A stretch of DNA of 64,000 nt from an uncultured bacterium (GCA_963727525.1 CAVSGO010000005.1:64001-128000), one strand, 5' to 3'. Numbered from the stretch's first letter, positions 7,533 to 34,341 are shown. Notes: a model not told the origin generated them from the sequence alone. Numbers and translations: made by a program.

Positions 7533-8816
7533 ATGCACAATCCGTGGGTCACACCGGACCGGATCCTCCCCCAGAATGGCGCGATCGATTGGGCCGTGGA
7601 CTACACGGCCCATCCCTTCCTCGATCCCACCATGCCCGACCGCGCGTCCCGGCTGCGCCGGTTCACCCAGCTCACCTGGGAGCGCATCCGCGACGACGAC
7701 GCGATCTACCGGCGCGAGGCCGCCCGCCTGCTGCGTCCGCTGCGCGGCGTACCGGGCGAGATCCAGCCGTGCCACGACGACATCGTCATCATCTCGGAGT
7801 ACCTGCAGGAAGCCGACGTCTACCTCTATTCCACCATCGACCTCTTGCCCGAGCCCTCGCGCGACGCGGTGCTGCCGCACGAGGACGTGAATCGCTGCCA
7901 CGACCTGCGCGAGCTGCTCGCCATGGTCTTCGGCGACGATCCCGGGCGCCGGCGCTTCGAGGCCCAGCGCAAGCTCTACCTGGCCAACCTGCTACTCGAC
8001 ATCGACCACTCGCGCCTGGTCCAGGACGGACCGCTCCACCTCGCGTACTTCGAGGAGTTGCTCGACAACGTGCTCTGGCGGCACAAGAAGCAGGAGTACG
8101 AGATCAAGATCGGTTTTCACATCGCGGACGATGGCGAGACGATCCGCTACTCGGCGCGGCCGCGGCGCAACGATCAGGTGTGGACGTTCCACTCCGCGTA
8201 CCTGGAGACGCCGAACGCGGGGGCGATGACGTCGCTCGACATCCTTTACTGGAATTGCCGCTTCAAGCGTTCGGTCGATCGCGTGAGCTTCGAGGTGGTG
8301 GATGGTCAGCACAAGGTGCTGGAACGGGTGCGCTGGAGCGAGATGCGCCAGCACCGCAGCGGGTCGATTCTCTCCAAGATGATCCGCCGCGGCATCAACA
8401 ACCCCGGGGAGATCGCCGACATGCTCGGCGCGATGTTCATCGTGCACGACGACGACGCCCTCAACGATCTCCTGGCGCTCCTCGACGCCGGCATCGGCAA
8501 CCCCTTCGGCTGGCGCAACGTCACCGACACCTTCGGCGCCGAGCCCGCGGGCAGCCGCCTCAATCGGCACAGCGCTGCCGGCTTCAAGGTCTTCAAGGGC
8601 GACGTCGACATCCTCATCCCGGGCCGCGGACCGGGCCAGCCGCCGTATCGATTCTCGGTGGAGATCCAGATCCACACGCTCGAGAGCTTCCTGCGGACGG
8701 TGTGCTCGGCGCACGCCGCCAGCCACCTGGCGCTCAAGCTAAGGCAGTTCGTGAGCGGGCTGGTACCGTACCTTTTCCCCACATCGGTCTACGGCGAGGA
8801 ATGGCTGCGCTACTGA
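7533..8816 (+). CDS. Stand-alone RelA/SpoT-like nucleotidyltransferase-domain protein (TIGR04552/TIGR04562-like)
   Basis: C-terminal half reads SILSKMIRRG...IADMLGAMFIV...NRHSAAGFKVFK...VEIQIHT, paralleling RelA/SpoT synthetase motifs. Starts 2 nt after the upstream stop. Confidence 0.6.
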   Translation: MHNPWVTPDRILPQNGAIDWAVDYTAHPFLDPTMPDRASRLRRFTQLTWERIRDDDAIYRREAARLLRPLRGVPGEIQPCHDDIVIISEYLQEADVYLYSTIDLLPEPSRDAVLPHEDVNRCHDLRELLAMVFGDDPGRRRFEAQRKLYLANLLLDIDHSRLVQDGPLHLAYFEELLDNVLWRHKKQEYEIKIGFHIADDGETIRYSARPRRNDQVWTFHSAYLETPNAGAMTSLDILYWNCRFKRSVDRVSFEVVDGQHKVLERVRWSEMRQHRSGSILSKMIRRGINNPGEIADMLGAMFIVHDDDALNDLLALLDAGIGNPFGWRNVTDTFGAEPAGSRLNRHSAAGFKVFKGDVDILIPGRGPGQPPYRFSVEIQIHTLESFLRTVCSAHAASHLALKLRQFVSGLVPYLFPTSVYGEEWLRY

Positions 8817-8836: not shown

Positions 8837-9895
8837 TCAGTGCGTCCCCGGCGTGATGAGGTGGCACTTCTCGCAGAGCGGCCCCTGCTCCGGATCCCCG
8901 TAGGGATTCGGTAGCGGGAAGGACCCCGAGACTTCCCCATCGTCCTCGAGCAACGACACGTGGAAATCCCAGCGCCCCGCCGCCGGCGCCGACGAGGCGT
9001 GCGCGCGGTGGCAACTCAGGCACATGACGCGGCTGTTGCCGATCGGTCCGATCGTGCTCGTGGTGGCGGCACGAGTGTCCTCGAAGGGAACCTCGGGCAG
9101 GTAGGCGAGCGCAAAGGTACCGCCGCCCGGGTTGCGGGTGCCGTCGTAGTTGTTGTAGTTGCGCGCCGTGCCGTGGGACAGCGTGCTGTCGGTGGGGTGC
9201 TGGAAGACGCTGACCTGTTCCTCGTGATAGCGTCCATGGCAGTTCGCGCACCAATCGGACATGCCCGCGCGATAGGCGGTATGGGATTCCGGCGTCTCGC
9301 CCGAGGCGAACCCCTGCGGCGGCAGCCCCACGGCCGTGGGTGCCGGATGGCTGAACTGGTAGCGTCCGCCCTGGATCTCGCCCACGCCGTACAGCATCCG
9401 GAAGTTGTCGTTGCCGTGCGGATCGTGGCAACTCGTGCAGCCGAGCCAGGCGCTCGGATAGGTGCCTCCGGGTGCCTCGGTGAAGCGCGTGTCGGCGTCG
9501 GCCCCGCGGTCCGGCGCCACGATGCTGTGGCCGGCCGCCTCGCCGGCGATGGGCTGCGTCAAACCGTCCGGACCATCGTTGATGTTGTCCTCGAGCAAGA
9601 AGACGAAGTTGCCGGCGCCGCGCTCGACCGGCGGGGTGAGCGGATTCTCCCCGAATACGCCACCCTGTCCGCCGTGGCACATCAGGCACACGTCGCTCGG
9701 ACTCGCCGCCACGAGCAGGGCCTCCCCGCCGTCGATCAGGACATCGCCGTCGCGTTCACCGTGGGTGACGTGGCAGGATGCACAGCTGGCGACACCCTTG
9801 TCGTGGAACGCGCGCGCCGTGGGTCCCGCGAGCAGGACCAGGAGCCCCAGGCCAACGCCGGTCAGGCGGGTCATGCTGGGTCGTATGGACTTCAT
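8837..9895 (-). CDS. Hexaheme c-type cytochrome, OmcS/OmcT family paralogue
   Basis: Signal peptide, then FHDKGVASCASCHVTH. Six CxxCH motifs (CASCH, CLMCH, CTSCH, CANCH, CLSCH, CEKCH); APGGTYP, GMSDWCANCH and VMCLSCHRAHAS as in OmcS. Start could also be 9874. Confidence 0.88.
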   Translation of the reverse strand: MKSIRPSMTRLTGVGLGLLVLLAGPTARAFHDKGVASCASCHVTHGERDGDVLIDGGEALLVAASPSDVCLMCHGGQGGVFGENPLTPPVERGAGNFVFLLEDNINDGPDGLTQPIAGEAAGHSIVAPDRGADADTRFTEAPGGTYPSAWLGCTSCHDPHGNDNFRMLYGVGEIQGGRYQFSHPAPTAVGLPPQGFASGETPESHTAYRAGMSDWCANCHGRYHEEQVSVFQHPTDSTLSHGTARNYNNYDGTRNPGGGTFALAYLPEVPFEDTRAATTSTIGPIGNSRVMCLSCHRAHASSAPAAGRWDFHVSLLEDDGEVSGSFPLPNPYGDPEQGPLCEKCHLITPGTH

Positions 9896-10013
9896 GATGG
9901 TCAGGAAGGCTCCCCGGGATGCGTGTTCGTTGCGAGCCGTATGCCCGCCCCCCACAATATGATAGCACATTGACCGCGTGTTTCCAGCAGCATTGTCGCC
10001 GAACGGCTTTGGG

Positions 10014-10050
10014 AAAAAGGAGACCCCGCGGAGCACGCCGCGGGGTCCCC
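10014..10050 (-). terminator. Rho-independent terminator after the first omcS-like gene
   Basis: Minus strand GGGGACCCCGCGG-CGTGCT-CCGCGGGGTCTCC followed by TTTTT. Confidence 0.85.
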
Positions 10051-10088
10051 TGTCAGCAATCCCGTCGAGACGGGCCGAAGGTCCGCGA

Positions 10089-11192
10089 CTACTCGTTCGG
10101 GGCGTCGAACTCGTCCTTGACGTGGCACTTGTTGCACAGCGAGCGCTGGTTGTCGCTGAACGTGTACTGGTAGTACTTGTTCGTCACATCGTCAGCCGTC
10201 GCGCCGTCGTCGGTGATCTGCGGGTGGGATTCATTGATGAACGTCGTGCCCATGTCCCAGCGCGCGATGTCGGAGAAGGCCGACGCGTGCGCGCGGTGGC
10301 AGCTCAGGCACATGACCTTGTCGACGCTGTCCGGGCCCAGCGTGTAGTCCATGGAATCGACGGTCTCCAGGTCGACGTTGACGGCCTCGAACGGCACCAG
10401 ACCGGCGTACGCCGTCGCCTGATCGCCACCATTCGGGTCGTCGGTGCTGATGTAGGCGTTGTAGATGGCGGCCACGGTGCTGCCCAGGTTCTCGCCGGCA
10501 GGATGCACGTGGTTGGTCGTGTTGTCGGTCAGGAAGTTCGGGTGGCAGTTGGCGCACCACTCGCTCATGCCGCTCTTGTACACGGTGTGCTTGGCATCGG
10601 TCTCGTTGCCGTTGGTGTCGCCCACCATCGTGCGGCGGCTGTTGCCCTTGGCCAGCGGCGCCGCGCTGGTGAACGGGAAGCGGGTGCCGTCGTAGCGGGG
10701 GCCGGCACCGGCGCCGTAGAGCAGGCGGAAGTTGGCGTTGCCATGGGGATCGTGGCAGCTGGTGCACGCGAGGCGGCTGCTCAGGAAGTCGCCGCCGGGG
10801 GCATGCTCGAGCGTCTGGTCGACGTCGATGCCGTAGGCCGCGGACACGACGTTGTGGCCGTGGGAATCACCGGAGCTGACCGTGGTGTGGCCATGAGCGC
10901 TCCAGCTGTAGTCCTTGGTGACCCAGTAGAAGTCGCCGCCGGGGCCGTAGCCGGCGCCGCCATAGAACTGGCCGTAGTCGGCGTGGCAGCTCAGGCACAC
11001 GTCGGTCGGCGTCGCCGCGACGAGCAGGAACGGATAGCCGGTGGCGCTGTCGGTCACCTGCTCGCCGTCCTGGCTGTTGTGCATGGTGTGGCAGCCGGCG
11101 CACTCGGCGACGCCGCCAGCGTGAAACGCGAGCACCGCGTTGGCGCTCAGCGAGAGAGCGATGATGAGAGCAATCTTGAACGTGGTCTTCAC
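10089..11192 (-). CDS. omcS: Hexaheme c-type cytochrome, OmcS nanowire-subunit homologue
   Basis: GTG start with GGAGG RBS; signal peptide; mature N-terminus FHAGGVAECAGCHTMHNS (Geobacter OmcS as recalled: FHSGGVAECEGCHTMHNS); PGGDFYWVTKDYSW, GHNVV, APGG, CTSCHDPHG, GMSEWCANCH, HPAG, CLSCHRAHAS, QRSLCNKCHVKD. Six CxxCH motifs. Confidence 0.93.
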   Translation of the reverse strand: MKTTFKIALIIALSLSANAVLAFHAGGVAECAGCHTMHNSQDGEQVTDSATGYPFLLVAATPTDVCLSCHADYGQFYGGAGYGPGGDFYWVTKDYSWSAHGHTTVSSGDSHGHNVVSAAYGIDVDQTLEHAPGGDFLSSRLACTSCHDPHGNANFRLLYGAGAGPRYDGTRFPFTSAAPLAKGNSRRTMVGDTNGNETDAKHTVYKSGMSEWCANCHPNFLTDNTTNHVHPAGENLGSTVAAIYNAYISTDDPNGGDQATAYAGLVPFEAVNVDLETVDSMDYTLGPDSVDKVMCLSCHRAHASAFSDIARWDMGTTFINESHPQITDDGATADDVTNKYYQYTFSDNQRSLCNKCHVKDEFDAPNE

Positions 11193-11391
11193 GGGTCTGC
11201 CTCCAACGGATTGCTACCAGGTTGTTCCGAACACCCGCGGTGCCCGGAGCGTTCGTGCCGTCAATCTCGATCACTGTCTGACACGACGAATCTCATATCG
11301 GTCGCTGCGGACTTTGCGTGCTTGGTTGCCGGTCTTCACTCCTTTCGTCATTCTTGCGCAGGCACATGCTGCAGGTTCGTGAGTGCCGCAA

Positions 11392-12324
11392 TCAGCGACG
11401 CCCGAGTTCTCGCATCCTGAAAACCTGCACGCGGCCCTCGAAGCCCTGAGCCACGTAGATCCGCCCCTCCGGCGTCGCGGCGAGCGCCAGCGGGTGATAG
11501 AGCTGTCCGGGTCGGAAGCCGAGCTTGCCGAACTCCGTGACGAACGTGTGGTCGCTGTCGAAGACGAGCACGCAGGCGCGCATGCGATCGAGCACCAGGA
11601 CCTCGCCCTGCGGCCCGAAAGCCACGGCGACCGGAAAGCTCATGCGGCCCGGCGACGAGCCGAAGCGTCCAAACGTGTCGAGCAAGGCGCCATCGGCGGC
11701 CAGGACGATGATGTGACGCAGATCGCCGCCGGGAACGTAGATGCGACCATCCGACGCCTCGGCCGGGCGCCCCATCGCCGTGAACGAGCGGCCTTCGCTG
11801 ATGTCGCGCTGCCACAGGAGTGCGCCGGTGTGCGCATCGTGCTTCGCCAGCACGCCGGAAGCCGAGTCCAGGGTCAGGTAGTCGCCATCGCGCGTGATCA
11901 GCAGATGGTCGGGATTCCAGTCGGCGATGGGCGGTTGCGCCGCGTAGGCGACGGGCTCGCCGAATACGTTCAGACGGCGGATCTCCGTGTGGAAATCGCG
12001 GCCGCGATCGGTGAACACGAATCCGCCATCGCGATCGATTGCGCCATCGGCGGGGTACGAGAGATCGGCGAGACGACTCGTGCGGAAAACCTCGACATCG
12101 CTCGGGTTGAGCAGGTGGAATATGGACTGGCGTACATCGGTGACGCAGATCTCGCCGTTGGTAGGATCGATGGAGATGGCCACCGGCCGCGGCTTGCCGA
12201 CGCTGCCCACGGAGAGCGGCAGCGTCGCCTCGTAGTCGAAGGCGTAGCCCGCGGCGCAGACCACGGCGTCGAGCAAGGCGGCAGTGATCGTTGTAAAAAC
12301 TACCAATTTCGTCAGCGTATTCAC
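11392..12324 (-). CDS. NHL-repeat beta-propeller protein (OscD-like companion of OmcS)
   Basis: Signal-like N-terminus; repeated P-x-x-I/V-A-x-D/G-x-x-G-x-I/V-Y-V units and FGRFGSSPGRMSFP / FGKLGFRPGQLYHP NHL motifs. Start GTG 12324 or TTG 12357. Confidence 0.85.
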   Translation of the reverse strand: MNTLTKLVVFTTITAALLDAVVCAAGYAFDYEATLPLSVGSVGKPRPVAISIDPTNGEICVTDVRQSIFHLLNPSDVEVFRTSRLADLSYPADGAIDRDGGFVFTDRGRDFHTEIRRLNVFGEPVAYAAQPPIADWNPDHLLITRDGDYLTLDSASGVLAKHDAHTGALLWQRDISEGRSFTAMGRPAEASDGRIYVPGGDLRHIIVLAADGALLDTFGRFGSSPGRMSFPVAVAFGPQGEVLVLDRMRACVLVFDSDHTFVTEFGKLGFRPGQLYHPLALAATPEGRIYVAQGFEGRVQVFRMRELGRR

Positions 12325-12415
12325 AACTCGCGAGCCTCGGAATGCGAAATCGGACAATTATCGACCAGTTACAGGCCCACCAATCCGCAGCACCTGTTCA
12401 TTCCCGACGCCATCG

Positions 12416-12471
12416 AGCATATCAAACAAAAAGTAACTGTCAAACTATTTGCACAAAGGTTAACACCTTTG
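12416..12471 (-). promoter_or_regulatory. Sigma70-like promoter with an upstream palindrome, driving the NHL-omcS genes
   Basis: Minus strand TTGACA (12443-12438), 16 nt, TG-extended TATGCT (12421-12416). Palindrome CAAAGGT-TAAC-ACCTTTG at 12454-12471 in an AT-rich gap. Confidence 0.65.
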
Positions 12472-12552
12472 ATGTTTCTTTTTGCAATGGCCGAGAACCC
12501 CCCTCCAAATACCTATGAATTAAGGAATTCTGGAATTGTGAGAATGAACACT

Positions 12553-12582
12553 AGCGGCGGGCCCCCAAAAGAACCCGCCGCT
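12553..12582 (-). terminator. Hairpin, possible terminator after the giant multiheme gene
   Basis: AGCGGCGGG...CCCGCCGCT stem about 30 nt after the stop; weak U-tract. Confidence 0.5.
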
Positions 12583-12611
12583 GTCGCGATTTGCACCGTT
12601 TCCCGGAAAGC

Positions 12612-15600
12612 TCACTCCCGCTTCTGGCGCAGCTTGTCGGTGTGGCACTGTACGCAGAGGCGGCCGCCCGGGTCCGCAGTGAGGAACTTCGGGAAGGCAC
12701 TCCCGTGCTCATCGTGGCAGCTCGCGCACCCCATCGGACCACCCGTGCGCGGATCCGTGACAGACGGCCCGACCGGGTGGTCGGTGTGCTCGGCGTAGGT
12801 GTGGCAACCCAGACACGGTTCGCGCCGCGGCCCGGCGGCGGCTGCCTGCGTCGGCGCCGCGAGATGGGGATCGTGGCACATGCTACAGGTCCGGTCGTCG
12901 ATCACCGGATGCGTGTACGCGGCCTGGCGACGCTGGTCAACCTGCTCGGCATGGCACTGGCCGCATACGTCAGCCTGCTCGCGCGGCATCAGGGCCGCCT
13001 TCGGCGTGGTGTGAGGCGCATGGCACACGGTGCAGGCACCCCCGTTCGCGAGCGGAGCGTGCGGCACGCCCACTTTCAGGTCCTCACCCAGCCCGCGATG
13101 GCAGGTGAAGCACAACGCGGGTTCCGGCTTCACGAGATCGGTCTTGCCCGACACGTGACAGGCCGTGCACTGACCCTTGCGGTAGGGCGCATGAACGACG
13201 GCATGCGGCAGCGATTTCGCGTCCGACGCGTGCGGGGCGTGGCACGAGGCGCAGTCGGCCTCGGCCACCGGGAAGCCCTGGTGCTTGGACTTGAGGGCCG
13301 CGGCCGATTCACGGTGACAGTGGCCGCACACCTCTCGCGGCGCGGCGCGCAGGCTCATCGCCACGCGGCCGCCGTGCGCATCGTGGCACCCGAGGCAGTT
13401 GCCGGCGCGGAACGGGGCATGCACGAAGGCCTTCTTCTGTGCGGCCTGCAGGTCCGCGTGGCATTCCCAGCACAGCTTGCCGGCGGGTACGCGCAGCAAT
13501 GCCTTCTGCTGCGACGCGTGGGGCTCGTGGCAGGCGTCGCACTTGCCGTCGCGAACGGGCGTGTGCGCGAACGCGGGATTCGGTGCGAGATCCGCGAGGG
13601 CGTGGCACGACTCGCATGTCTCGGCCACGGTATCGGACACGAGCAAGTGCTCGCCGCGGCTGACATGAGGATTATGACAGGCTGAGCATTCGCCGGCCGC
13701 AACCGGGGCATGCACGACCGGAGCTGCCCCATGCCCCGTTACGGGATCCTCGTGGCAGCCCGCGCACAGGCTCGACTGGTCGACGATCGGCGCTTTCGAT
13801 TCGTGGCACACCGTGCAATCGCCGTCGGCGAATGGCGGGTGGCTGCGGGCGTGCAGCAGCGACGGTCTCGTGGAGCGGTGCGGTTCGTGGCACCACATGC
13901 AGTCGAGAGTACTGGGATCGCGGTCGAGATGCTTCTCCCGGAACGCGCTGGCGTTCTCGTCATGGCACTGGAAACAGAGCGCGGGCACCGGCTCGTTCAG
14001 GAAGCCCTTGCCCTCGCCGCCATGCGCCTGGTGGCAGGCGAGGCAATCGCCCTGGGCCGGCGCGTGGATGGACACCGCACCCTCGGTGGACGCGACGTCC
14101 TGATGGCAGAGTGTGCAGAGCACCTCGGTCGGGGCGACGAGGAGCTGCTTCTGCGGCGACCGGTGGGGATCGTGGCATGCCGTGCAGTCGCCGGTAGCCA
14201 CCGGCTGGTGCGCGTGCCAGTTCGGGCTCTGCGCAACCTGCACATCATGGCAGGTCGCGCAGATCTGCTGCGCGGGCTCGCGCAGGAATGCGGGGTTGTC
14301 GCCACCGTGCGGCAAGTGGCAGGTGCTGCACTCGCCGGCGGCCGTGGGCGCATGCACGCTGCCGCCGTCAGGCGCCGTCACCATGTCTTCGTGGCAGCGC
14401 TGACAGAGCTGCTCGGGCGCCGTATTCAGGAGCTGCGGCTGTCCCGCCGCGTGCGGCTCGTGGCAGGCCAGGCATTCACCGCGGGCCACCACGTCATGCG
14501 GATGGGCAGACGCGATCTGGAGCTGCGTACTCACGTGACAGCTCAGACAGAGCGCGCCGGGCTTGTCCCTGAGGAGCGAGGCCTCGCTCGCACTGTGGGG
14601 GTCGTGGCACTTCGTGCAGTCCTTCTTGACGACGGGCGCGTGGGTCGACGCCGCATCGGCCGGCACGACGTCGTCGTGGCAGGTCGTGCACAGGTCGCGC
14701 GAAGCGGCGACCAGGAGGTGCGGCTGCTGACCACCGTGCGGCGTATGGCACTCGGCGCAGTCGCCGTCGGCCACTGGCGCGTGCACGTCGGCGCGCTGGA
14801 AGGCGGCCGCATCGTGGCACGCAAGGCAGGTGCGCGCCTGGTCGCTGACCAGCAAGTGGGCATACGGACTGCCGTGCGGCGCGTGGCACGCCAGGCAATC
14901 GCCATCGGCCGCCGGCGGATGGGGCTCCGTGGCGCCGGCCGTCACGTCGTCATGGCACGCCTGGCAGAGCTGGGGCACCGTCGCCAGGAGCGCATGGTCG
15001 TCGCGCATGGCACCGTCGCTCGTGGTCTCGTGGCAGGAGGCGCAGTCGCCGTCGGCCACCGGCGCGTGGCGCACGACGTGCAGCATCGCCCGGGAGTCGG
15101 AGCTGTGCGGATCGTGGCACGAGATGCAGCCGCTGGGCGCGGTGGTCGCGTTGCCATGGGCGCTCGCCAGCTTCGCTGCGTCGTCATGGCACGAGGCGCA
15201 GAGCGCGTCGGGAGCCTCCTTGAGCATCGCCAGCTGGTCCGACCCGTGCGGGTCGTGACAGACCACGCAGCCGTCCTTCTTCAGGGGCTCGTGCACGTAC
15301 TTGCGCGCGAAGGCGCCGGCGTCATGGCAGCGGGTGCAATCCTTCGCACCGCGAGCCTGCAGGAGATAGGGCTGGCCCGAACCGTGCGGATCGTGGCACG
15401 CCGCGCAGCCATCGTCCTTGATCGGCGGGTGCGTCACCTTGCGCTTCACGGCCGTCGCCACATCGTCATGGCACTCGAGGCAAAGCGTGTTGCCCGGCAG
15501 CTTGAGCGCGAGCTTGCCCACCACGCCGTGCCGGATATGGCATGCCTCGCAGTCTGCCGCCTTGAACGGCTCGTGGGCGTACTTGTCCTTCACCTGCGAC

Positions 15601-15737
15601 TTCATCGTGTCGTGGCAGTCGAGACAGGCCTTCTGCTTGAACGGCCCCGCCTGAGCCGTCGCCGCCAGCATCACGACGACGGCGAGGCTCAGGAGAGCCC
15701 ACCGGCGAGCTTCGGTCATGAAGGAGGTGCGGACCAC
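12612..15737 (-). CDS. Giant multiheme c-type cytochrome, 42 CxxCH motifs (doubled-CXXCH repeats)
   Basis: Hand count of 42 CxxCH. Repeat unit HxP...CxxCHxPH.S...LL...LCxxCH; signal peptide ending ATAQA; GTG 15737 with GGAGG 7 nt upstream. Confidence 0.93.
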   Translation of the reverse strand: MVRTSFMTEARRWALLSLAVVVMLAATAQAGPFKQKACLDCHDTMKSQVKDKYAHEPFKAADCEACHIRHGVVGKLALKLPGNTLCLECHDDVATAVKRKVTHPPIKDDGCAACHDPHGSGQPYLLQARGAKDCTRCHDAGAFARKYVHEPLKKDGCVVCHDPHGSDQLAMLKEAPDALCASCHDDAAKLASAHGNATTAPSGCISCHDPHSSDSRAMLHVVRHAPVADGDCASCHETTSDGAMRDDHALLATVPQLCQACHDDVTAGATEPHPPAADGDCLACHAPHGSPYAHLLVSDQARTCLACHDAAAFQRADVHAPVADGDCAECHTPHGGQQPHLLVAASRDLCTTCHDDVVPADAASTHAPVVKKDCTKCHDPHSASEASLLRDKPGALCLSCHVSTQLQIASAHPHDVVARGECLACHEPHAAGQPQLLNTAPEQLCQRCHEDMVTAPDGGSVHAPTAAGECSTCHLPHGGDNPAFLREPAQQICATCHDVQVAQSPNWHAHQPVATGDCTACHDPHRSPQKQLLVAPTEVLCTLCHQDVASTEGAVSIHAPAQGDCLACHQAHGGEGKGFLNEPVPALCFQCHDENASAFREKHLDRDPSTLDCMWCHEPHRSTRPSLLHARSHPPFADGDCTVCHESKAPIVDQSSLCAGCHEDPVTGHGAAPVVHAPVAAGECSACHNPHVSRGEHLLVSDTVAETCESCHALADLAPNPAFAHTPVRDGKCDACHEPHASQQKALLRVPAGKLCWECHADLQAAQKKAFVHAPFRAGNCLGCHDAHGGRVAMSLRAAPREVCGHCHRESAAALKSKHQGFPVAEADCASCHAPHASDAKSLPHAVVHAPYRKGQCTACHVSGKTDLVKPEPALCFTCHRGLGEDLKVGVPHAPLANGGACTVCHAPHTTPKAALMPREQADVCGQCHAEQVDQRRQAAYTHPVIDDRTCSMCHDPHLAAPTQAAAAGPRREPCLGCHTYAEHTDHPVGPSVTDPRTGGPMGCASCHDEHGSAFPKFLTADPGGRLCVQCHTDKLRQKRE

Positions 15738-15764
15738 GGTGTATCCTCCCGCCACGTGGGCGAT

Positions 15765-17102
15765 CTATGGCGCGACGGCGCCTTCGCGACCAGTGCCTGC
15801 TGCCGCCACCCGCGCCGCGACCATGGCCTCGGCGTCGGGGACGATCGTGATCGGTGTGGCCGCCCTGAGCTTGGTGATGGCCTCGGACATCTGTGCCACG
15901 GACTGCTCCGTGCGCATGAGGCCGATGATCTTGCTACGGCAGGCGTCCAGCGGAGCGGGTTCGACCTTCTCGACGCCGTCGACCACGGCCACCACCCATC
16001 CGCCCGGCACCTCGAAGGGATCGAGCACCGTACCGGGCTTCATCTGCACCGCCTCGATGCCAAGCATCTGCGGGTCGAAGAAATCCTGCGGGAACGGCGG
16101 CGGCCCGTCGACGACGCCGGGCAGATTGCGCCGCAGCCAGCCGAGCATGGCCCCCTGCGCCAGCCGCGTCCGCATGGTCTCGGCCGCCTCCTTCGACTCG
16201 AGCTTGACGCTGTCGAGCTTCACCCGCGGCGCCGGTGTCACGTCCGACAGATGCTTCTCGTAAAACGCCTCGACCTCGGCATCGGTGGGCTTGGTGTCGA
16301 CCGCCGCGAAGATCTTCACCGACTCCTCCTGCACGAGCTGCCGCTCGAGCCGCCGCGCGTACAGGCGCAGGTCCGGCCGCTCATCGACATGCTCGATCTT
16401 GGCCTGATAGCGCACGAGAGCCTCATCGAGCCAGCTCGCGAAAATCTTGTCGCGCCGTTCGGCCGCGTCGGGCTTGCCCTCCATGCCGTGGTACTCGCGG
16501 AAACGTATCTCGCGCGAGAGATGCTTGACACGCATGGTCCCCGAAGGGATCCGGGTCAGCACGTCCTCGCTATCGTGCAGATGCTGCTGTATCGCCGGAT
16601 CGGCCGAGCCGTAGTCGAGCGACTTGAGGAGCGTCGTATCCACCGTGACGGCGTATTGCTCGCGGAGTCCCTGGATGTAGGCGTGCACCGCGGCCGTGCG
16701 CGACGGGACATCGGCGGCGGCGGTCGCGGCCACGGAATCGAGGAGCGCCTTGGAACACTGCGTACGCACCGCCTCCGTGACCTGATTCTTCACCGTGAAC
16801 TGCTGGTCCAGCCCCATCCGGTAGCCCTCCTGGATGATGAGCTGGTTCTCGATCATGCGTTTCAGGACGGCGGCCGGTTCCGGGAGCGCGATCGGCATAC
16901 CGGAGGGCGCACGCTGGCGCATGAGCGAGAGTTCGATATCAAGATCGACGACGCGCAGCGTGTCGTCGCCGATGAAGGCCAGGGGCTGCTCGGACGCGAC
17001 CGGCGTCGCAAGTGCCGGCACGGCCTGGACGCAGGCCACGGGCACCGCCGACAGGGCGATCAGCAGCAGTCCCGGCCACCAGGACAGGCGATGTACGGAC
17101 AT
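15765..17102 (-). CDS. SurA/PrsA/PpiC-like periplasmic chaperone / parvulin-type PPIase (OscH-like)
   Basis: Signal peptide; SurA-N-like VLKRMIENQLIIQEGYRMGLD and a second similar repeat; parvulin-like VKLDSVKLESKEAAE...MKPGTVLDPFEVPGGWVV. Confidence 0.75.
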   Translation of the reverse strand: MSVHRLSWWPGLLLIALSAVPVACVQAVPALATPVASEQPLAFIGDDTLRVVDLDIELSLMRQRAPSGMPIALPEPAAVLKRMIENQLIIQEGYRMGLDQQFTVKNQVTEAVRTQCSKALLDSVAATAAADVPSRTAAVHAYIQGLREQYAVTVDTTLLKSLDYGSADPAIQQHLHDSEDVLTRIPSGTMRVKHLSREIRFREYHGMEGKPDAAERRDKIFASWLDEALVRYQAKIEHVDERPDLRLYARRLERQLVQEESVKIFAAVDTKPTDAEVEAFYEKHLSDVTPAPRVKLDSVKLESKEAAETMRTRLAQGAMLGWLRRNLPGVVDGPPPFPQDFFDPQMLGIEAVQMKPGTVLDPFEVPGGWVVAVVDGVEKVEPAPLDACRSKIIGLMRTEQSVAQMSEAITKLRAATPITIVPDAEAMVAARVAAAGTGREGAVAP

Positions 17103-17103
17103 G

Positions 17104-18171
17104 TCAGGATTCCTTCCTCACCGAGCGAAGGTCTTGCCAGAGTCTATCGGCGGAGCGTTGCAAGATGCGCATGAGAGGCGTGGTGTCGGTGGACCCGAAC
17201 CACCGCACGTCGTCGCTGCGGTCGCGATACCGGGTGGCGCTGGCCGCCAGCAATCCGTCCGGAAGATCGATGGTCCGCAGCGTGAACGCGAAGTCGCGCA
17301 CACCCGTCGCATGCACACTGGGCGCGGCATCGTCGAACATGGCACTGCGCACGCCGCTGCCGCGCAGGTCGTCGAATGCGACCAGTTCCGGCCGCACGAG
17401 GGCGGACACGCCGAAATGGTCCTGGAGCTGCTGATACGCCGCGTGCTGCAATCGCTGCGGGTCGAATCCCGCGGCGAGCAGGTCGGACAGCACGAGCGCC
17501 GGATCGATGGGGCGGGCATCATGGCTGGCGAGCGCGGCGCCCAGGACGCAGAACGTCGCGGTCAGCGCCATGTCGGCATCACAACCCACGCCGATGGTCG
17601 GCATCACGAGCACCGATGCGGCACTCGTGGCGGGGGACACCGGGGAAGTGAGCTGAGCCATGACGCCTTGTACCGCCGCGAGCAAGGCCGCGGTCTCCCC
17701 CGCGGGATCCTCGCCGGTCAACCTCTCGGCCACTGGCTGCTCCGCGAGCCAGACCTGATTCACGCGTCCCGAACTCGTCTCGACGCCGCGAACCAGGGCC
17801 ACGACGCGCTGCGCCTCGACGATGACGTGCGCGACCACGAGATCAGCCACACCCACGCTATCGCGCGCAGCGGCGAGGAACGCCGGCGTCAAGAGCATGC
17901 TGCTGCGGATGCGCTCCTGCCGCGCAAGCGCCACGACTGCAGACGTCGGCGCGACATCGTGCCCCAGACGCTGCAATGCCGTCTCGCCGGCTCGCGTCAC
18001 GACGATGCGGAGCTGGCTCACGGTGATGGGCAGGACCGTTTCCGTACGGCCGCTGATGAAGACCAGGAGTCCCGTGCGCGCAGGAGCAGGCGCGGCCCAC
18101 ACCGGCCCGGCCGCCGCCAGCGTGGCGGCGAGCAGTCCGGCTGCGAATCGGTTGCGCGCGACGTCGGACAT
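17104..18171 (-). CDS. Exported protein, possibly with two TolB-N/CsgG-like alpha/beta domains
   Basis: ATG overlaps the upstream stop (TGATG); signal peptide ending PVWA; repeats ending VRGVETSSGRV and LRTIDLPDGLL resemble the l.l.d..tG strand of CsgG/LpoB folds. Confidence 0.55.
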   Translation of the reverse strand: MSDVARNRFAAGLLAATLAAAGPVWAAPAPARTGLLVFISGRTETVLPITVSQLRIVVTRAGETALQRLGHDVAPTSAVVALARQERIRSSMLLTPAFLAAARDSVGVADLVVAHVIVEAQRVVALVRGVETSSGRVNQVWLAEQPVAERLTGEDPAGETAALLAAVQGVMAQLTSPVSPATSAASVLVMPTIGVGCDADMALTATFCVLGAALASHDARPIDPALVLSDLLAAGFDPQRLQHAAYQQLQDHFGVSALVRPELVAFDDLRGSGVRSAMFDDAAPSVHATGVRDFAFTLRTIDLPDGLLAASATRYRDRSDDVRWFGSTDTTPLMRILQRSADRLWQDLRSVRKES

Positions 18172-18740
18172 CAGAACAACGTTTCCATGGCATCGTCGAC
18201 GGCCTCGCGTGTCACGTCGTAGAGACTCGCCGAGCCGCCACCGAAGAGCTTGCGCCAGATCGAGGTTCCGTTGCGATGGACCTGGCTCTGCCACACCAGG
18301 GACCCGGTCTGCGTCTCTGCCAATGCCAGCGTCAACGTCACTGCGTTGACGCGGTCGCCGCCGAGCTTCTCCGCCCCATAGTCCTCGACGGATCCGAAAA
18401 CGATGGCGTCGACACCGAGCTCCTTGCCGAGCGCCACGATCTGCTCGGACGAGGGATCCTGATTCGTGTCGAGCTTGAGGCTGCGGATCGCAGCGTAGAC
18501 CTGGCCTTCTTCGATCACACGCAGCGCGCCACGATCGAGCAGGTACGACATGACCACCGAGTAGACACGCGCGTCCGCGAACGGATCCGGTGTGCGATTC
18601 TGGAGGGGGTAGACAGCCGCGCGTTGGATGAAGCTGTAGTCGACATCCTCGCGCACGAAGGATGTCGGCCGAGAGGCGCAGCCTGGAAAGACCGCCCCCA
18701 CGACAAGCAGGATCCCCAGGCCGATTGTGGTTCGCTTCAT
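18171..18740 (-). CDS. Lipoprotein of the CsgG/PelC/GNA1162/LpoB-like fold
   Basis: Lipobox FPGC; AAVYPLQNRT, ALGKELGVDAIVFGSVEDY, LALAETQTGSLVWQ; GGGAGG RBS. Confidence 0.8.
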   Translation of the reverse strand: MKRTTIGLGILLVVGAVFPGCASRPTSFVREDVDYSFIQRAAVYPLQNRTPDPFADARVYSVVMSYLLDRGALRVIEEGQVYAAIRSLKLDTNQDPSSEQIVALGKELGVDAIVFGSVEDYGAEKLGGDRVNAVTLTLALAETQTGSLVWQSQVHRNGTSIWRKLFGGGSASLYDVTREAVDDAMETLF

Positions 18741-18795
18741 CGTACCGCCTCCCGTTCGTATTGACGAACGTCCCACGAAATCAGTGATTCCAGAC

Positions 18796-21006
18796 TCAGA
18801 AAGTCCAGGTCCCTCTCACGTTCCAGTTCGTCGGCGTATTACGATCTCCATGCTGCTTGACCAGAGTCCACTCCGCACCACCCTCGAAGCGCAGATGGCG
18901 GCGCGCCTTCCATACGGCGCCCCAGCCCGCGCCACGCTGCACGTAGTCGGTGCGGGTGTCCTGCTGGTCGGTGAGATAGAGTCGCAAATTCATGCTGCCA
19001 CCTGGCAGCGGGGTCCAGCTCAGGGTATTGCGTAGCAACCAGGCGTCTTCGTCGCGCACCTGGTACAGGACCTGACTGTTGAAGAACACGAGCGGCCGGA
19101 TGGACCAGTTGACATCGAGGCTCGTGTCGTTGAACGGCGTGAACCCGGAGCCCGCCTCCTGGTTGACCCAGCGATCGGCGCGACGCAGGTGCAGATCGAG
19201 GTAGGGCCGCGGCGCCCCGCGCACGTCGGACACGAGTACCCAGGAGTGGCTCTGCCCGTCCACGTCCTGCGCATCGCGAATGCCATAGGTGACCTTCTGG
19301 GCGAACGTGAGCCGCGGCTTGGCGTCCCAGGTCACGTCGCCCGTCCAGGAGTTCGTCGTACGGCGCTGGATGTCGCTCTGATCGTTCACGCGCGACCAGG
19401 CGACGCGCGCGCGCAGATCGGCCCGCCGGGCCGTGGCGACGGACACGTGCTGGGCCGTAACGTCCGTATTCTGCCGGGACGCGCTGATCACACGATTGAT
19501 CTGGTGGTCGGCCGACACAACCACGGGACCGGGCCGCCACGAGGCGCCGAACACATGGGCCATGCCGTAGACGTCGCGATCGTCGGTGTCGTAGTGGCGA
19601 CCAGTGAGGCTGGTGCTGTAGCGCACGCCGATGGTGGTCGTCAGGTCGTAGCCGATGTCGCCCTGCACACGATAGCGGTCGAGCGTGGAACGCACGCGCG
19701 TGTCGCCGCTGCCGGGCGCCGGTTCGTACACCTCCATCTCGTTCACGTAGAGGTCGGCCTCGGTGGGGCCGAACTTCTGATCGACGAGCTTGAGGCGACG
19801 ATGCGCGATCGGCGTGGCGAAGGTGAAGACCCAACCTTGACGGTTATCGGCCATCTCGTCCCAGACGACCGACACCTGACCCGCCGACAGCGGGTCGCCC
19901 CACTCACGCCCCTCGGGATCGTCGCTCACGTAGACCGACCAGGCGATCAGATCCGGGAAGCGGACGATGCGGTCGACGTAGAGGACGACCGACGCCATGG
20001 TCTGCGCCTCGCCGAAGTCGACGATGAGGTTGCGGAAGTCGCCGCCATACTGGCGCACGATCGAGGCCGAGTCGCCGATGTTGATCACGGTCGGCGTGTC
20101 GCGATCGCCGTCGGCCAGGGCCGTCACGGCCACGGGATCGAGCTCGAGCGGATCGAGGATCCCGGGCGTATCGTCGAGCGAGTAGCCGCTCCAGATCGGC
20201 GGCACGAGGATCGTGGCCCCGCTGCCGAATGCGGTGTTGGTCTGGCGGAAACGGCTGCCGGTGGCCTGGAGGGAATACCGTCCGCGGTGGTCGGCGAAGG
20301 CCCGCGCGCTACGCAGTTGCACCTCGTGGCTCACGTACTCGGTCTCATGGCCCTGAGTCTTGGCCCGCTGATCGCTGCGTGTGAACTGGTACTGCACGGA
20401 CTCGAACCGCGTGGGGTCGACCTCCACACGGCCCGACTGACGATGTTCGCGATTCTCCCGGCTCGTGCCGTTGGCCTCGCGCCACGATCCGATCTCGAGG
20501 GCGCGCGCCTCCAGTGAGATCTGCGCGAACTCGAGGCGCGACCAACCACCGTACTCCGCGTAGTCGTCCCGGCGGGACGTGCCGTCGGCATACCAGTAGT
20601 CGCGGCGCGAAGCGAGACCCGAGAGTCCGCTCCGCCACGCGCCCGTCTCGTAGTTCAGCAGCAGGCTCGGACTCGCGTACTCCGAATGCGACTTGCTGGT
20701 CGCGCCGTCGAAGCTGCTCTCGAGATGCTGGCGCCTCGCGACGGCACTGCTCAGGAGATCCAGGCCGCGCATGAATACGATACGTTGATCGAGGCGGTAG
20801 GTCTCGGTGAGCGTGGAGTTGTCGTAGGCCGTGAGTCCGGCGCCACCGCTCTGCCACGTATTCCAGAGGTCGGCGCGCCCGTTGAGGGCGAGCGCCGCAG
20901 GCGCGAGACCGGCAACCACGACGACGAGGAACAGGCAAGACGCCTGGACGTGCGCTCTGCTGCCCGCGCAGCACTCGTCGAATCGCGTTGCCGGAAGCAC
21001 TCGCAT
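18796..21006 (-). CDS. Predicted outer-membrane beta-barrel protein with an inserted discoidin-like domain
   Basis: Signal peptide; alternating polar/aromatic strands; C-terminal beta-signal WNVRGTWTF; central segment ALADGDRDT...LIVDFGEAQTMASVVLY...LYVNEMEVY. Start uncertain (21006 or 21066). Confidence 0.7.
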   Translation of the reverse strand: MRVLPATRFDECCAGSRAHVQASCLFLVVVVAGLAPAALALNGRADLWNTWQSGGAGLTAYDNSTLTETYRLDQRIVFMRGLDLLSSAVARRQHLESSFDGATSKSHSEYASPSLLLNYETGAWRSGLSGLASRRDYWYADGTSRRDDYAEYGGWSRLEFAQISLEARALEIGSWREANGTSRENREHRQSGRVEVDPTRFESVQYQFTRSDQRAKTQGHETEYVSHEVQLRSARAFADHRGRYSLQATGSRFRQTNTAFGSGATILVPPIWSGYSLDDTPGILDPLELDPVAVTALADGDRDTPTVINIGDSASIVRQYGGDFRNLIVDFGEAQTMASVVLYVDRIVRFPDLIAWSVYVSDDPEGREWGDPLSAGQVSVVWDEMADNRQGWVFTFATPIAHRRLKLVDQKFGPTEADLYVNEMEVYEPAPGSGDTRVRSTLDRYRVQGDIGYDLTTTIGVRYSTSLTGRHYDTDDRDVYGMAHVFGASWRPGPVVVSADHQINRVISASRQNTDVTAQHVSVATARRADLRARVAWSRVNDQSDIQRRTTNSWTGDVTWDAKPRLTFAQKVTYGIRDAQDVDGQSHSWVLVSDVRGAPRPYLDLHLRRADRWVNQEAGSGFTPFNDTSLDVNWSIRPLVFFNSQVLYQVRDEDAWLLRNTLSWTPLPGGSMNLRLYLTDQQDTRTDYVQRGAGWGAVWKARRHLRFEGGAEWTLVKQHGDRNTPTNWNVRGTWTF

Positions 21007-21089
21007 CCTCGTGAATCCTGTATCGCCGCGGCGATGCGTCCCCCACAACGCGTGACTTCGCTGCACGGTGCTGTCGAAATGTGGTTAAA

Positions 21090-21169
21090 AGCGTAACAGT
21101 ATGGCGTCACGGAATCAAATAATTCCTAATTATCAGTCGGATTTCTTGACAGACAACGTTCGGATTTCT
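21090..21169 (-). promoter_or_regulatory. Sigma70-like promoter with a 10-bp direct repeat
   Basis: Minus strand TTGATT (21118-21113), 17 nt, TG-extended TACGCT (21095-21090). TCGGATTTCT occurs at 21137 and 21160. Confidence 0.55.
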
Positions 21170-21996
21170 CAGAAGCCGGCCTGGGCGACCTGCGGCGACG
21201 GCACGCCTGGCGACGCGAATTGATGGCAACCGAGGCAGAGATCCCGCGGTGGGTCGAACGGGATCAGAAGGTCGCGCGTGGTCGCCGTCAGCAAGTGGCA
21301 CGTCTGGCACTCGAGCCGCCCCGCCGGCAACGGTAGGCGGCTGTCGAGATCGGCCCGCAAGCGGCTGCCGGGAATCGTCTGCCCCGCACGCACCGCGATG
21401 CCGAAGGGATGACTCGCGTGCTCGTCGAACCGCGGACCGGTCTCGGCCCCTCGTTCACGCCAGAACGACGCTTTGTTACCGGAATGGCAACCGAGACAAC
21501 CCTCGGACGGGGAGAGCCCGGCGAGCCGCTTCGCGTCCTCGTGATAGAGTCTCGCGGCTTCACGATGCGCATCCGAGACCTGGGCAAGATCGTGCCCCGG
21601 CCCGTGGCATGACCGGCAATGGGCCGCGTCCACGGTGCGCAGACTCGCCAGCGACAGGCTGCCGAGCGGCGTCGCGACGGCATCGGGCGCATGGAAGGCA
21701 TGGCAGCGCACGCAATCGGGAGCATCCGCGCCCCCGCCCCGCACCTGGTGGAACCAGGTCGCGAGCGCACGGGTCGAGGCCGGATGCGCGCCATGGCAAC
21801 TCCGGCACGCCGCCGTCGACGCGTTCCCGCCGGCCGACGCACCGCTGGCGGAACGGAGATGGCAGAGGCGGCAATCCACTCCGGAGTGCGCCGTCGCTTG
21901 GCCCGGATCGGCCGCGCCAGCCGACGCGGCGAGGAGGACCAGGGCTGCGAGGATCACCCCCGCCAACCGGCGATGCTTGATCACGTTGCTCATCAT
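21169..21996 (-). CDS. Exported heptaheme c-type cytochrome
   Basis: Signal peptide; seven CxxCH (CRLCH, CRSCH, CVRCH, CRSCH, CLGCH, CQTCH, CLGCH); C-terminal SHPFG...LPL..G.LECxTCH module. Confidence 0.88.
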   Translation of the reverse strand: MMSNVIKHRRLAGVILAALVLLAASAGAADPGQATAHSGVDCRLCHLRSASGASAGGNASTAACRSCHGAHPASTRALATWFHQVRGGGADAPDCVRCHAFHAPDAVATPLGSLSLASLRTVDAAHCRSCHGPGHDLAQVSDAHREAARLYHEDAKRLAGLSPSEGCLGCHSGNKASFWRERGAETGPRFDEHASHPFGIAVRAGQTIPGSRLRADLDSRLPLPAGRLECQTCHLLTATTRDLLIPFDPPRDLCLGCHQFASPGVPSPQVAQAGF

Positions 21997-22040
21997 GAAG
22001 CAACTTTTCGATCAAAAATTCATTTACTTGAGGGAATTCT

Positions 22041-23343
22041 TCAGTGACTGGATTCACTGTCGAGGCGGCGCAAGACCGAGTTCACCGACTCGGCATCGCC
22101 CTCGCGCGCCACGGCCAGGGCGAGGGCGCGCGCCATCGCGAGGTCGTCCTGCTCGCCGCTGGCCCGCCGGAGATTGCCGGCCACGAGGCCGACGACCTTT
22201 CGCATGAGCGACTGGGAGAAACGGTCGAGCTGCTCGTGGTCTTCAGGCTGGAAGCGTCGCTTCTGGCGGGCCACCTCGTCACTGCGCAGCGTCTCGAGCA
22301 CCTGGGCGAGCTGCTCCACCATCGGCGCCACGCGGTGCTCGCGATACCAGGCGACGAACTCCTCGACGTGTTTGTCGATGAGCTTCTCGGCGCGCTCGGC
22401 CTCGTGTTCGCGCGCCTTGAGGTTCGCGGCGACCAGCTCCTGGAAGTCGTCGACGTTGTAGAGATAGAGATCCGGCAGACCACGCACGTCCGGTTCGACG
22501 TCGCGTGGCACGGCGAGATCGAGGATGAGCTGCGGCCGCTTGCGCTTCTTGTTGGCCGGCGCCACCCGCTCGCGGGCGAGCACCGCCTCCGGTGATCCGG
22601 TGGCGCAGACCACGATGTCGGCCCACACGAGATCATCGAAAGCCGGCGGGTACGCGGTGGGGCGACCACCGAGCAGATCGGCGACGACGCGCGCGTTCGA
22701 CTCCGGTACGGTTGGCCACGCGCCAGTTCGCCACGCCGGCGCTCTGCAGATGCTTGGCCGCCAGCCGCGCCGTCTCGCCTGCCCCCACGAGCAGAACGTT
22801 GCGGCCTGCGAGATTGCCGAAGATCCGCTGGGCCATTTGCACCGAGGCGCTGGCCACCGACACGGCGCCCTGACTGATCCCCGTCCGGTGACGTGCGGCC
22901 TTGCCCGCCTCGATGGCGCGCAGCATGGTCTTGTTGAGCACGCTGTTGGTGGTGCCCAGCTCCTGGGCCTGCATGTACGCATTCTTGAGCTGGCCGAGGA
23001 TCTGCACCTCGCCCAGCATCTGGCTGTCGAGTCCCGCGGCGAGGCGCATGACGTGGCGGACCGCCTCGTCGTCGCGCAGGATGTACGCGCTGGCGGCCTC
23101 GGCGGGAGCGAGCCCCGTCAAGTCGCACAGGAGATCGCGCAATTCGTCGGCGTGGCAGTGCTGCAGGGGCGACAGGTAGAGCTCGGTGCGGTTGCACGTG
23201 CTGAGCACGACGGCACCCTCCACGCCCTCCTGCGTGACGAGGCGCTGCACCGCCTCGGCCACTTGCTCCGAACCCATGGCTGCCTTCTCACGCACCTCGA
23301 TGCTGCTGGTGCGGTGGTTCAGCCCGATCAGTTCGAGCCTCAT
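22041..23343 (-). pseudogene. hemA: Glutamyl-tRNA reductase with a +1 frameshift near 22704 (real lesion or sequencing error)
   Basis: N-part MRLELIGLNHRT, LSTCNRTE, GLDSQMLGEVQILGQ, VGAGETA, VANRT is in the frame of ORF 22633..24099. C-part ESNARVVADLLGG, DLAVPRDVEP, LYNVDD is in the frame of ORF 22041..22982. Removing one base at 22703/22704 gives 433 aa. Confidence 0.9.
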
Positions 23344-24167
23344 ACCACCCTCCCGACGAAGATCTCCACGACCGAGACCATCAGCAGCACCACGACCACC
23401 GCCGAGAGCACGAAGCTGATCCAAGCGAGACGCTGCACCGCGAGCCAGCGAAAGCGGTCGGCCAGTACCAGCAGGGTGATGAGCACGGCGAGCAGCAGCA
23501 TGGGATGCAGGTGGCTGATCACGGGGGCATGATCGGCGGCCGGCCGCAGTCGCAACCAGATCATCGCCGACACGAGACTCACGGAGATGAGCAGCCATCC
23601 GGCCACCAGGGTCACGCGGCGCAGACGATCGAGATCGCCGAGCGACGGTAGGCGCTGGAACCACACGTCGAAGTCTCGCTTGCGCAGATGGCCGTGCAGG
23701 ATGATCTGGCCGGCGCCGAAGACGCCGCTGCCCAGGAGCATCGCGATGCCCGCGAGCGAGAGCGTGATGTGCACCGACGCCTGGCCGCCCTTCAGGCCGT
23801 CCGGCACATGGGATGGGGTCGGCCCCGCCGCGAGACCGACCAGCACCAGCATCACGACGCCCGCCAGCGGCAGCAGCGTGAACAGGCGCTGATCCACGCG
23901 CCACTGCGCATACGCCTGGCCGATCCAGACGAGGCCGCCGAGGAAGAGCGCGAGTTGCCCGAAGTTGTAGACCGGCACCTGGCCCTGCCGCAGGGTGAGC
24001 GCCACCATCCAGGCCAGGTAGAGCAGCGCGCCCAGCCAGCCCACCCCTCTGGCAGCCGTTTCGAGGCGCGTATCCGCGCGGCGTACGAGCACGATCCACA
24101 GGCCGATGAGTCCGCTGAAGAACACGAGCAGGAGCAGCGGCACGATGTGGTAGAGCAGACGATCCAT
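23340..24167 (-). CDS. ccsA: Cytochrome c assembly family membrane protein (CcsA/HemX/YpjD-like)
   Basis: About 8 TM helices; SVHITLSLAG and RLPSLGDLDRL; ATGA overlap with hemA. The canonical WGxxWxWD motif is not evident. Confidence 0.7.
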   Translation of the reverse strand: MDRLLYHIVPLLLLVFFSGLIGLWIVLVRRADTRLETAARGVGWLGALLYLAWMVALTLRQGQVPVYNFGQLALFLGGLVWIGQAYAQWRVDQRLFTLLPLAGVVMLVLVGLAAGPTPSHVPDGLKGGQASVHITLSLAGIAMLLGSGVFGAGQIILHGHLRKRDFDVWFQRLPSLGDLDRLRRVTLVAGWLLISVSLVSAMIWLRLRPAADHAPVISHLHPMLLLAVLITLLVLADRFRWLAVQRLAWISFVLSAVVVVLLMVSVVEIFVGRVV

Positions 24168-24360
24168 GATGGCGATCCTCCGTACGGGCGACGCCGCCGG
24201 CGCACGCCGCGACGCCCCTGGAATGTAAGACCTAATTCGTGGTCGCGACAGGACGACATCGCCGACGCTGTTTCCGGGGGCGCCATGTGATATGATCGTG
24301 TTCCGTTCGCGTCGAGACCGTAGGACCAAGCCGATCACACCGTTTCAAGAGAGATCCGCC

Positions 24361-34296: not shown

Positions 34297-34341
34297 GACG
34301 CATGCGTCCTTTGGTCGGGTGATGGTCAGCAGTTTTTTTAT

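Follow-up and report, generated by a model that had tools for sequence, protein, structure and literature searches.

Is the machinery that builds OmcS cytochrome filaments a speciality of Geobacter, or do other lineages encode it as well? The question is raised by a stretch of 64,000 nucleotides from an uncultured bacterium (GCA_963727525.1, CAVSGO010000005.1:64001-128000; hereafter the window), which a first-pass annotation, made from the sequence alone, had read as carrying an OmcS nanowire system with its own assembly and heme-supply genes in a non-Geobacter genome. Reading-frame and motif analysis places eleven co-oriented genes on the minus strand at positions 8837–24167; the coordinates of that annotation held, whereas its count of ten genes fell one short. 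Because the G+C content of the window is 65–72%, genes were chosen by third-position GC (GC3) together with motifs. We consider it fairly probable that the locus is an omcS-companion (osc) type cluster, i.e., the same machinery that folds, exports, and shapes OmcS filaments in Geobacter sulfurreducens. All 61 CxxCH heme-binding motifs counted earlier were recovered, with 7 in the frame at 21169–21996, 42 in the frame at 12612–15755, and 6 each in the frames at 10089–11192 and 8837–9895. The entire 4.66-Mb genome contains 22 high-GC3 frames with at least three CxxCH motifs (226 motifs in total); 4 of these frames and 61 of these motifs fall within this 13-kb stretch, a clustering that is far from chance.

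On sequence grounds, both hexaheme proteins are true OmcS homologues, as had been proposed. OmcS-like hexaheme A (10089–11192; 367 amino acids (aa), six CxxCH motifs; the probable filament subunit) and OmcS-like hexaheme B (8837–9895; 352 aa, six CxxCH motifs, a signal peptide, and a mature N-terminus of Phe-His) match OmcS (PDB 6ef8) over the full length at E values of 7.4e-55 and 2.4e-28, respectively, and OmcS is the sole match for either copy in a sequence search of the PDB. The two copies are 42% identical to each other and are the only OmcS-like genes genome-wide. The alignment of copy A begins at mature OmcS residue 1, right behind the predicted signal peptide. Across 116 aligned family members, all six CxxCH motifs are invariant, as are four distal histidines (H91, H128, H208, and H280); conservation is at least 90% for His2 and His16 (mature numbering), and the columns show that all twelve heme ligands are kept in both window copies. 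His16 of copy A aligns with H16 of OmcS, which we take to be the residue that makes the cross-subunit heme bond. According to excerpts of two papers, OmcS filaments owe part of their cohesion to a histidine through which one subunit ligates a heme in its neighbor (PMC9473688, PMC12307469). The AlphaFold2 model of mature copy A has a predicted local distance difference test (pLDDT) score of 92.5 and a predicted TM-score (pTM) of 0.90, and a Foldseek search of the PDB with this model retrieved 6ef8_A alone (E 1.5e-26, TMq 0.82, 35% identity), the next match standing at E 0.48. Thus, the hexaheme that might have failed to model as an OmcS fold has that fold. A two-copy complex prediction of mature OmcS-like A, run without controls, scored 0.01 against a mark of 0.42 and counts neither for nor against polymerization.

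The host is probably a Krumholzibacteriota bacterium, as judged from the nearest named homologues of copy A, which belong to 'Candidatus Krumholzibacteriia' (70–71% identity) and then to Eisenbacteria. A tree of 97 rows pairs copy A with a Krumholzibacteriia sequence as its sister, with a Shimodaira–Hasegawa-like approximate likelihood ratio (SH-aLRT) support of 97, and puts every Geobacteraceae sequence in the other major clade; Geobacteraceae homologues are 32–35% identical. The non-Geobacter origin claimed for the genome is therefore upheld by the distance of the Geobacteraceae and by the Krumholzibacteriia affiliation of the nearest named homologues. The accompanying 'Fibrobacteres–Chlorobi–Bacteroidetes (FCB)-like' label has no counterpart in the NCBI taxonomy, where Krumholzibacteriota are not placed under an FCB node. 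Copy B falls in a different subclade from copy A. Outside Geobacter, the tree (with loci L016 and L019) resolves the OmcS family into three subclades: an A-type that is cluster-linked in a permuted gene order, a type that immediately precedes the barrel gene where the gene order is canonical, and a B-type that is mostly a lone gene or the first of two.

The genes beside the hexahemes share both homology and gene order with the osc block of the Geobacteraceae, which bears out the likeness to osc companion genes first suspected. The comparison was made with a locus of Geomonas silvestris (L089), standing in for G. sulfurreducens, in which the genes run NHL, two OmcS-like genes, a 467-aa gene, a 762-aa gene, a 199-aa lipoprotein, a 388-aa lipoprotein, a 600-aa PpiC protein, a 26-heme cytochrome, a 16-heme cytochrome, and NHL. 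As excerpted, one paper gives the osc block as GSU2501 followed by the eight genes GSU2500–GSU2493, with GSU2495 carrying 26 hemes (PMC12977616), and another names GSU2501 oscC, GSU2495 oscI, and GSU2494 oscJ and ascribes folding to OscH, secretion to OscE/F/G, and morphology to OscD (PMC13194489); the Geomonas gene order fits the block so described. In the window, the lipoprotein (18171–18740; 189 aa, lipobox Cys21; OscF position) matches the Geomonas 199-aa gene at 31.6% identity (blastp E 4.8e-27; phmmer E 1.3e-23), and the PpiC-type prolyl isomerase chaperone (15765–17102; PF13145, E 3.4e-12; OscH position) matches the 600-aa gene (phmmer E 9.5e-14). Direct BLAST of the 736-aa barrel (18796–21006; OscE position) and of the exported 355-aa protein (17104–18171; OscG position) against the Geomonas genes gave no match, and the relationship emerged only with profiles of close relatives. 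The barrel profile, built from the window protein and 4 close matches, reached the 762-aa gene at E 8.3e-36 over residues 40–782, and a profile of 12 relatives of the 355-aa protein reached the 388-aa gene at E 1.2e-56; both searches found the Geomonas gene before it entered the model. The NHL-repeat beta-propeller (11392–12357; PF01436; start codon uncertain) is closer to the propeller upstream of Geomonas omcS (phmmer E 7.3e-16) than to the NHL protein at the OscK position (7.3e-8), and an NHL gene lies directly 5' of an OmcS-like gene in most loci. No propeller gene stands between the OmcS-like genes and the barrel gene at this locus.

The individual companion proteins also carry recognizable domains or folds. 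The lipoprotein matches PF13036 (LpoB) and PF05643 (GNA1162-like), and Cys21 of its lipobox is invariant in 37 OscF-like sequences. The earlier PelC-like call was right, because a profile of these 37 sequences matches PelC structures at E 2.1e-9 to 5e-8. Those of 5t11, 5t10, and 9h80_C fall at 2e-9 to 8e-9 (2.1e-9 for 5t11_A and 7.9e-9 for 9h80_C), and the same profile reaches GNA1162 at 1.6e-7 and LpoB at 6e-3. Profile searches relate the family of the 355-aa protein, with its two PelC/LpoB-like domains, to the lipoprotein family. The first-pass annotation had called this protein CsgG-like and the 736-aa protein an outer-membrane beta-barrel; neither belongs to a Pfam family, and what they are is read from iterated profiles and, for the barrel, from the model. 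Relaxing the Pfam search to E values up to 10 brought no informative match for the barrel, the 355-aa protein, or the HemX-type membrane protein discussed below. The barrel model (pLDDT 86.8) has ~28 long strands and an inserted beta-sandwich domain; Foldseek returned 226 PDB matches at E ≤ 0.001, of which the best 47 are nearly all outer-membrane barrels. The Atlas clusters closest to it consist of Thermodesulfobacteriota proteins without annotation and of one cluster named 'PEP-CTERM-associated outer membrane protein'. The SurA/PpiC chaperone and NHL propeller of the original reading were both found again as PF13145 and PF01436, and a PDB sequence search with the PpiC protein at E ≤ 1 yielded no relative.

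The giant cytochrome of the cluster (12612–15719; 42 CxxCH motifs) is, by its sequence matches, a fusion of OscI and OscJ, because 26 and 16 hemes add up to 42 and consecutive halves of the protein match the two Geomonas genes. Residues 7–639 correspond to the 26-heme protein at the OscI position (E 4.4e-136) and residues 669–1031 to the adjoining 16-heme protein at the OscJ position (E 9.4e-61), and reciprocal searches upheld both halves. The pair is encoded separately in most phyla and fused in the window and in loci L006 and L010. The counts of 26 and 16 hemes are fixed in Thermodesulfobacteriota, Acidobacteriota, Zixiibacteriota, and Ignavibacteriota loci and in several loci without a phylum label (L013–L089), a constancy that is unusually strict for multiheme cytochromes. 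In the window's own family, 50 of the 90 other genomes have a large-cytochrome match (E ≤ 1e-40); a full-length fused match runs uninterrupted in 32 of the 90 and with one in-frame stop in two more, and seven genomes have the 26-heme part alone, in a frame of 654–756 aa. At L040:5300-8800, the 42-heme gene is split into frames of 18, 8, 9, and 6 CxxCH motifs, and these breaks are probably assembly frameshifts. The 7-heme periplasmic cytochrome (21169–21996; seven CxxCH motifs) is an accessory member of the cluster, with relatives of 30–38% identity in 5 of 76 related loci (L019, L022, L023, L041, and L065). In four of these, a frame with the same heme count lies just upstream of the NHL gene; the L019 frame is on the opposite strand, at the far end. 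An iterated profile for the 7-heme protein was dropped when it drifted onto all multiheme cytochromes.

OmcS relatives and their companions are widely distributed. The OmcS family comprised 4190 proteins at E ≤ 1e-10 among 8000 scored, and 878 clusters at 50% identity and E ≤ 0.001. Among GTDB species genomes, at least 331 stretches encode an OmcS relative, and 76 loci were retained. Of these 76, 45 contain one or more companion families; E, two F/G genes, and H occur together in 36, of which 26 also have the large cytochrome, and the loci bear eight or more phylum labels, among them Thermodesulfobacteriota, Nitrospirota, Acidobacteriota, Krumholzibacteriota, Ignavibacteriota, Fibrobacterota, Myxococcota, Zixiibacteriota, and Deferrimicrobiota. 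A lone hexaheme was found in 12 loci of at least 20 kb. Loci are usually arranged as NHL, OmcS, (OmcS), propeller, E, F, G, H, I, J; in the window, L006, L010, L040, and one Geobacter-labelled metagenome-assembled genome (MAG; L068), the genes run E, F, G, H, I/J, NHL, OmcS instead. Within the window's own GTDB phylum, an OmcS-like gene is present in 58 of 208 genomes (G000 included), i.e., in 47 of the 90 other genomes of its own family, in 5 of 12 and 5 of 10 genomes of two further families, and in 0 of 95 genomes of six families; in an incomplete genome, the lack of a match is no proof of absence.

From these features we infer an export route, polymerization, and a direction of electron flow for the osc-type cluster. 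The cytochromes would be exported by Sec, and heme would be attached by a System II synthase encoded elsewhere in the genome. The OscH-like chaperone may aid folding of the proline-rich, loop-dominated hexaheme, and the ~28-strand OscE-like barrel, the PelC-like OscF-like lipoprotein, and its two-domain OscG-like relative could together form an outer-membrane export or anchoring channel, for which the nearest mechanistic analogy would be a PelB/PelC-type outer-membrane exporter. OmcS-like A would polymerize head to tail outside the cell, its N-terminal histidine ligating a heme of the next subunit, and the fused 42-heme protein and the 7-heme cytochrome may relay electrons through the periplasm to the base of the filament. 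In this scheme, copy B and the NHL propeller have putative roles.

Several points weigh against this scheme. Both window copies fall in a clade apart from all Geobacteraceae sequences of the tree. As excerpted, PMC12977616 holds that OmcS is the only one of the Geobacter hexaheme paralogues known as a wire and that sequence cannot tell which of them form wires. The Osc letters were given to the Geomonas genes by position, from excerpts of the two citing papers, and the comparison reaches the G. sulfurreducens sequences indirectly. A tblastn search of the genome at E ≤ 0.01 with the Geomonas gene at the OscD position found no OscD-like gene. Lastly, the only hemA of the genome is interrupted, and this break, if real, would argue against any cytochrome being made.

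The alternative that survives best, although we regard it as unlikely, keeps the machinery and dispenses with the filament. The hexahemes would then be monomeric or small-oligomer surface cytochromes delivered by the E–H proteins, maybe in an ancestral GSU2501-type role. The distance of the window clade from Geobacteraceae OmcS and the 35% identity fit this view, as do two points in the excerpt of PMC12977616, namely that genomes can carry the eight-gene block with a GSU2501-like hexaheme only and that the block may have served in secretion before there were OmcS wires. However, the N-terminal cross-subunit histidine is at least 90% conserved in the family and present in both copies, and an OmcS-type monomer would have one heme without a sixth ligand. 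Copy A is also unusually conserved, at 63–71% identity over 119 clusters among the matches listed, the window's own cluster excluded.

Two further ideas concern the passage of electrons through the outer membrane. In the first, which we hold to be quite unlikely, the circuit would be hard-wired: the fused OscI-J protein would be a continuous heme wire that spans the periplasm, threads the OscE-like barrel under the PelC-like ring, and joins the base of the OmcS-A filament, with OmcS-B as a base or cap adaptor. If true, electrons would run from the inner membrane to the filament without soluble periplasmic carriers or OscD. In the second, a very unlikely one, the barrel would sheathe the 42-heme cytochrome as MtrB does MtrA, giving a trans-outer-membrane wire that feeds surface hexahemes. 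MtrB (6r2q_B) has the best TM-score with the barrel model among PDB barrels (0.40/0.42), the barrel is always accompanied by the 26-heme and 16-heme pair of fixed counts, and a single-chain fusion would suit a continuous wire. However, a TM-score of 0.40 is weak, and by E value the best 47 of the 226 matches are headed by TonB-dependent receptors. The PelC-like ring lipoprotein and the prolyl isomerase chaperone point to export instead, and papers citing Shen et al. 2025, as excerpted, give OscE/F/G as proposed or suggested secretion factors for OmcS. The porin-cytochrome and export readings are not mutually exclusive.

The hemA and HemX-type genes at the upstream end are housekeeping neighbors outside the system, rather than the dedicated heme-supply and 'ccsA-like' genes of the first-pass annotation. 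A genome-wide TIGR01035 profile search found hemA (glutamyl-tRNA reductase; 22041–23343; GlutR_N and GlutR_dimer) here only, with profile positions 3–217 and 236–400 in two frames that switch at a short CG repeat near 22,690; the gene is intact in one frame in all five relatives searched. In a genome with 226 heme-binding motifs, the break looks like an assembly error, though it might be a real slip. The membrane protein at 23340–24167, whose stop overlaps the hemA start, scores 14.7 bits against PF01578, below the cut-off of 29.9, and we regard it as a distant PF01578 relative because all 30 of its nearest Atlas clusters carry that family. The cytochrome c synthases CcsA and ResC have a tryptophan-rich WWD heme-handling motif, and no tryptophan-rich motif of the WWD type was seen in the translation of the membrane protein. 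We take the protein to be of the HemX type, which its size and its stop/start overlap with hemA fit. A CcsA-type PF01578 match of 121 bits lies in a 1189-codon open frame on contig C6. At L054:3700-11000, in a MAG labelled Alphaproteobacteria (a label that may be wrong), there is a HemX-type/hemA pair 40–53% identical to that of the window; the B-type OmcS-like gene of that locus has seven CxxCH motifs and stands without companion genes. It is highly improbable that the two genes are dedicated to heme supply and attachment for the nanowire: they are co-oriented with the cluster, the gap between hemA and the 7-heme gene is 44 nt, and hemA lies ~6 kb from the OmcS-like gene in the relative L010, but it is there on the other side of the cluster, it is a housekeeping gene here because it is the genome's only copy, the ~9.5 kb upstream of the barrel gene in G005 (copy-A homologue 63% identical) hold no hemA, HemX-type gene, or cytochrome, the better synthase candidate is on contig C6, and the homologous pair of L054 lies ~5 kb upstream of a lone B-type gene in a 21-kb locus where no E–J families were found.

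The layout of the remaining signals suggests, at the sequence level, a machinery operon and a separate NHL/OmcS unit. This division is suggested by a terminator-like hairpin just 3' of the 42-heme gene (12553–12582; a 13-pair stem with 9 GC pairs and a T-rich tail) and a promoter-like site 5' of the NHL gene (12416–12443; TTGACA-16-TATGCT, 10/12, a consensus match only), both on the minus strand; terminator-like sites in the region are no more numerous than in shuffled sequences. A search of sequencing runs with 10 kb of the cluster returned no matching run, RNA runs included. The cluster is flanked by unrelated genes, namely a subtilase, a Cys/Met pyridoxal phosphate enzyme, an M23 peptidase, and a sulfatase. 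On the plus strand, a 427-aa high-GC3 frame at 7533–8816 is convergent with OmcS-like B and has no Pfam family at E ≤ 0.001. Both the M23 peptidase (24292–26535) and a beta-helix protein (32209–34425) end in an FlgD_ig-type C-terminal domain and may be cargo of a type IX-like secretion system. Elsewhere in the genome, three neighboring frames at C6:104256-110719 carry 10, 6, and 19 CxxCH motifs.

The cluster belongs to a known and already widely reported kind, and the finding opens no new category. OmcS- and Cyc2-encoding genes were reported in a Krumholzibacteria MAG 'for the first time' in 2021, with a proposed part in iron cycling (PMC7914226, in excerpt), and the title of Shen et al. 2025 (Cell Chem Biol 32:239) calls the osc machinery 'widespread and ancient'. 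The novelty first claimed for the locus was therefore overstated, the more so as we find the cluster under at least eight phylum labels. Our literature search returned no description of the companion cluster in Krumholzibacteriota, and the supplements of Shen et al. 2025 may already list such clusters and the fusion. A peat preprint and an activated-sludge paper hold nothing on OmcS clusters in Krumholzibacteriota, the latter describing the phylum as rich in multiheme proteins; PMC13712944 gives background on OmcE filaments and a porin-type secretion hypothesis. The twists typical of this lineage are the OscI-J fusion, an OscD that was not found, hexahemes downstream of the block, and an extra 7-heme cytochrome. 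Roughly half the species in one Krumholzibacteriota family have the OmcS/osc machinery with all heme ligands intact, which supports extracellular electron transfer of the cytochrome-filament type as common among uncultured sediment and soil heterotrophs rather than a Geobacter speciality. The 26 and 16 heme counts conserved across phyla, the 42-heme fusion found here, and the PelC-like OscF offer experimental handles on filament export and charging, which the citing papers, as excerpted, still treat as speculative.

Compared with known systems, the locus resembles MtrCAB (PDB 6R2Q) in having a large barrel gene beside multiheme cytochromes and MtrB as the best TM match, yet the TM-score is only 0.40 and the cluster has no MtrA- or MtrC-type decaheme. 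As in the PelB/PelC exporter of Pseudomonas aeruginosa (PDB 5T11, 9H80), a PelC-matching lipoprotein gene adjoins a large outer-membrane barrel gene; unlike in that system, the cargo would be a folded heme protein rather than a polysaccharide, and the barrel has no detectable sequence family. The krumholzibacteria_1 MAG (Dalcin Martins et al. 2021, PMC7914226) likewise has OmcS-encoding genes, and that report, as excerpted, gives a FeGenie marker match for the cytochrome alone, without companion genes, fusion, or structure. With G. sulfurreducens OmcS (GSU2504, PDB 6EF8/6NEF), the window proteins share the hexaheme fold, the twelve heme ligands, and the mature N-terminus, whereas copy A is 35% identical to it and belongs to a separate clade. 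The closest likeness is to the osc cluster GSU2505–GSU2493, compared here via the Geomonas locus and not G. sulfurreducens itself. The window differs from it in that its OmcS genes follow the block rather than precede it, a single 42-heme protein unites OscI and OscJ, OscD was not found, and a 7-heme cytochrome is added, but both encode a barrel, a PelC-like lipoprotein with its two-domain relative, a PpiC protein, 26- and 16-heme cytochromes, and an NHL protein in the same relative order.

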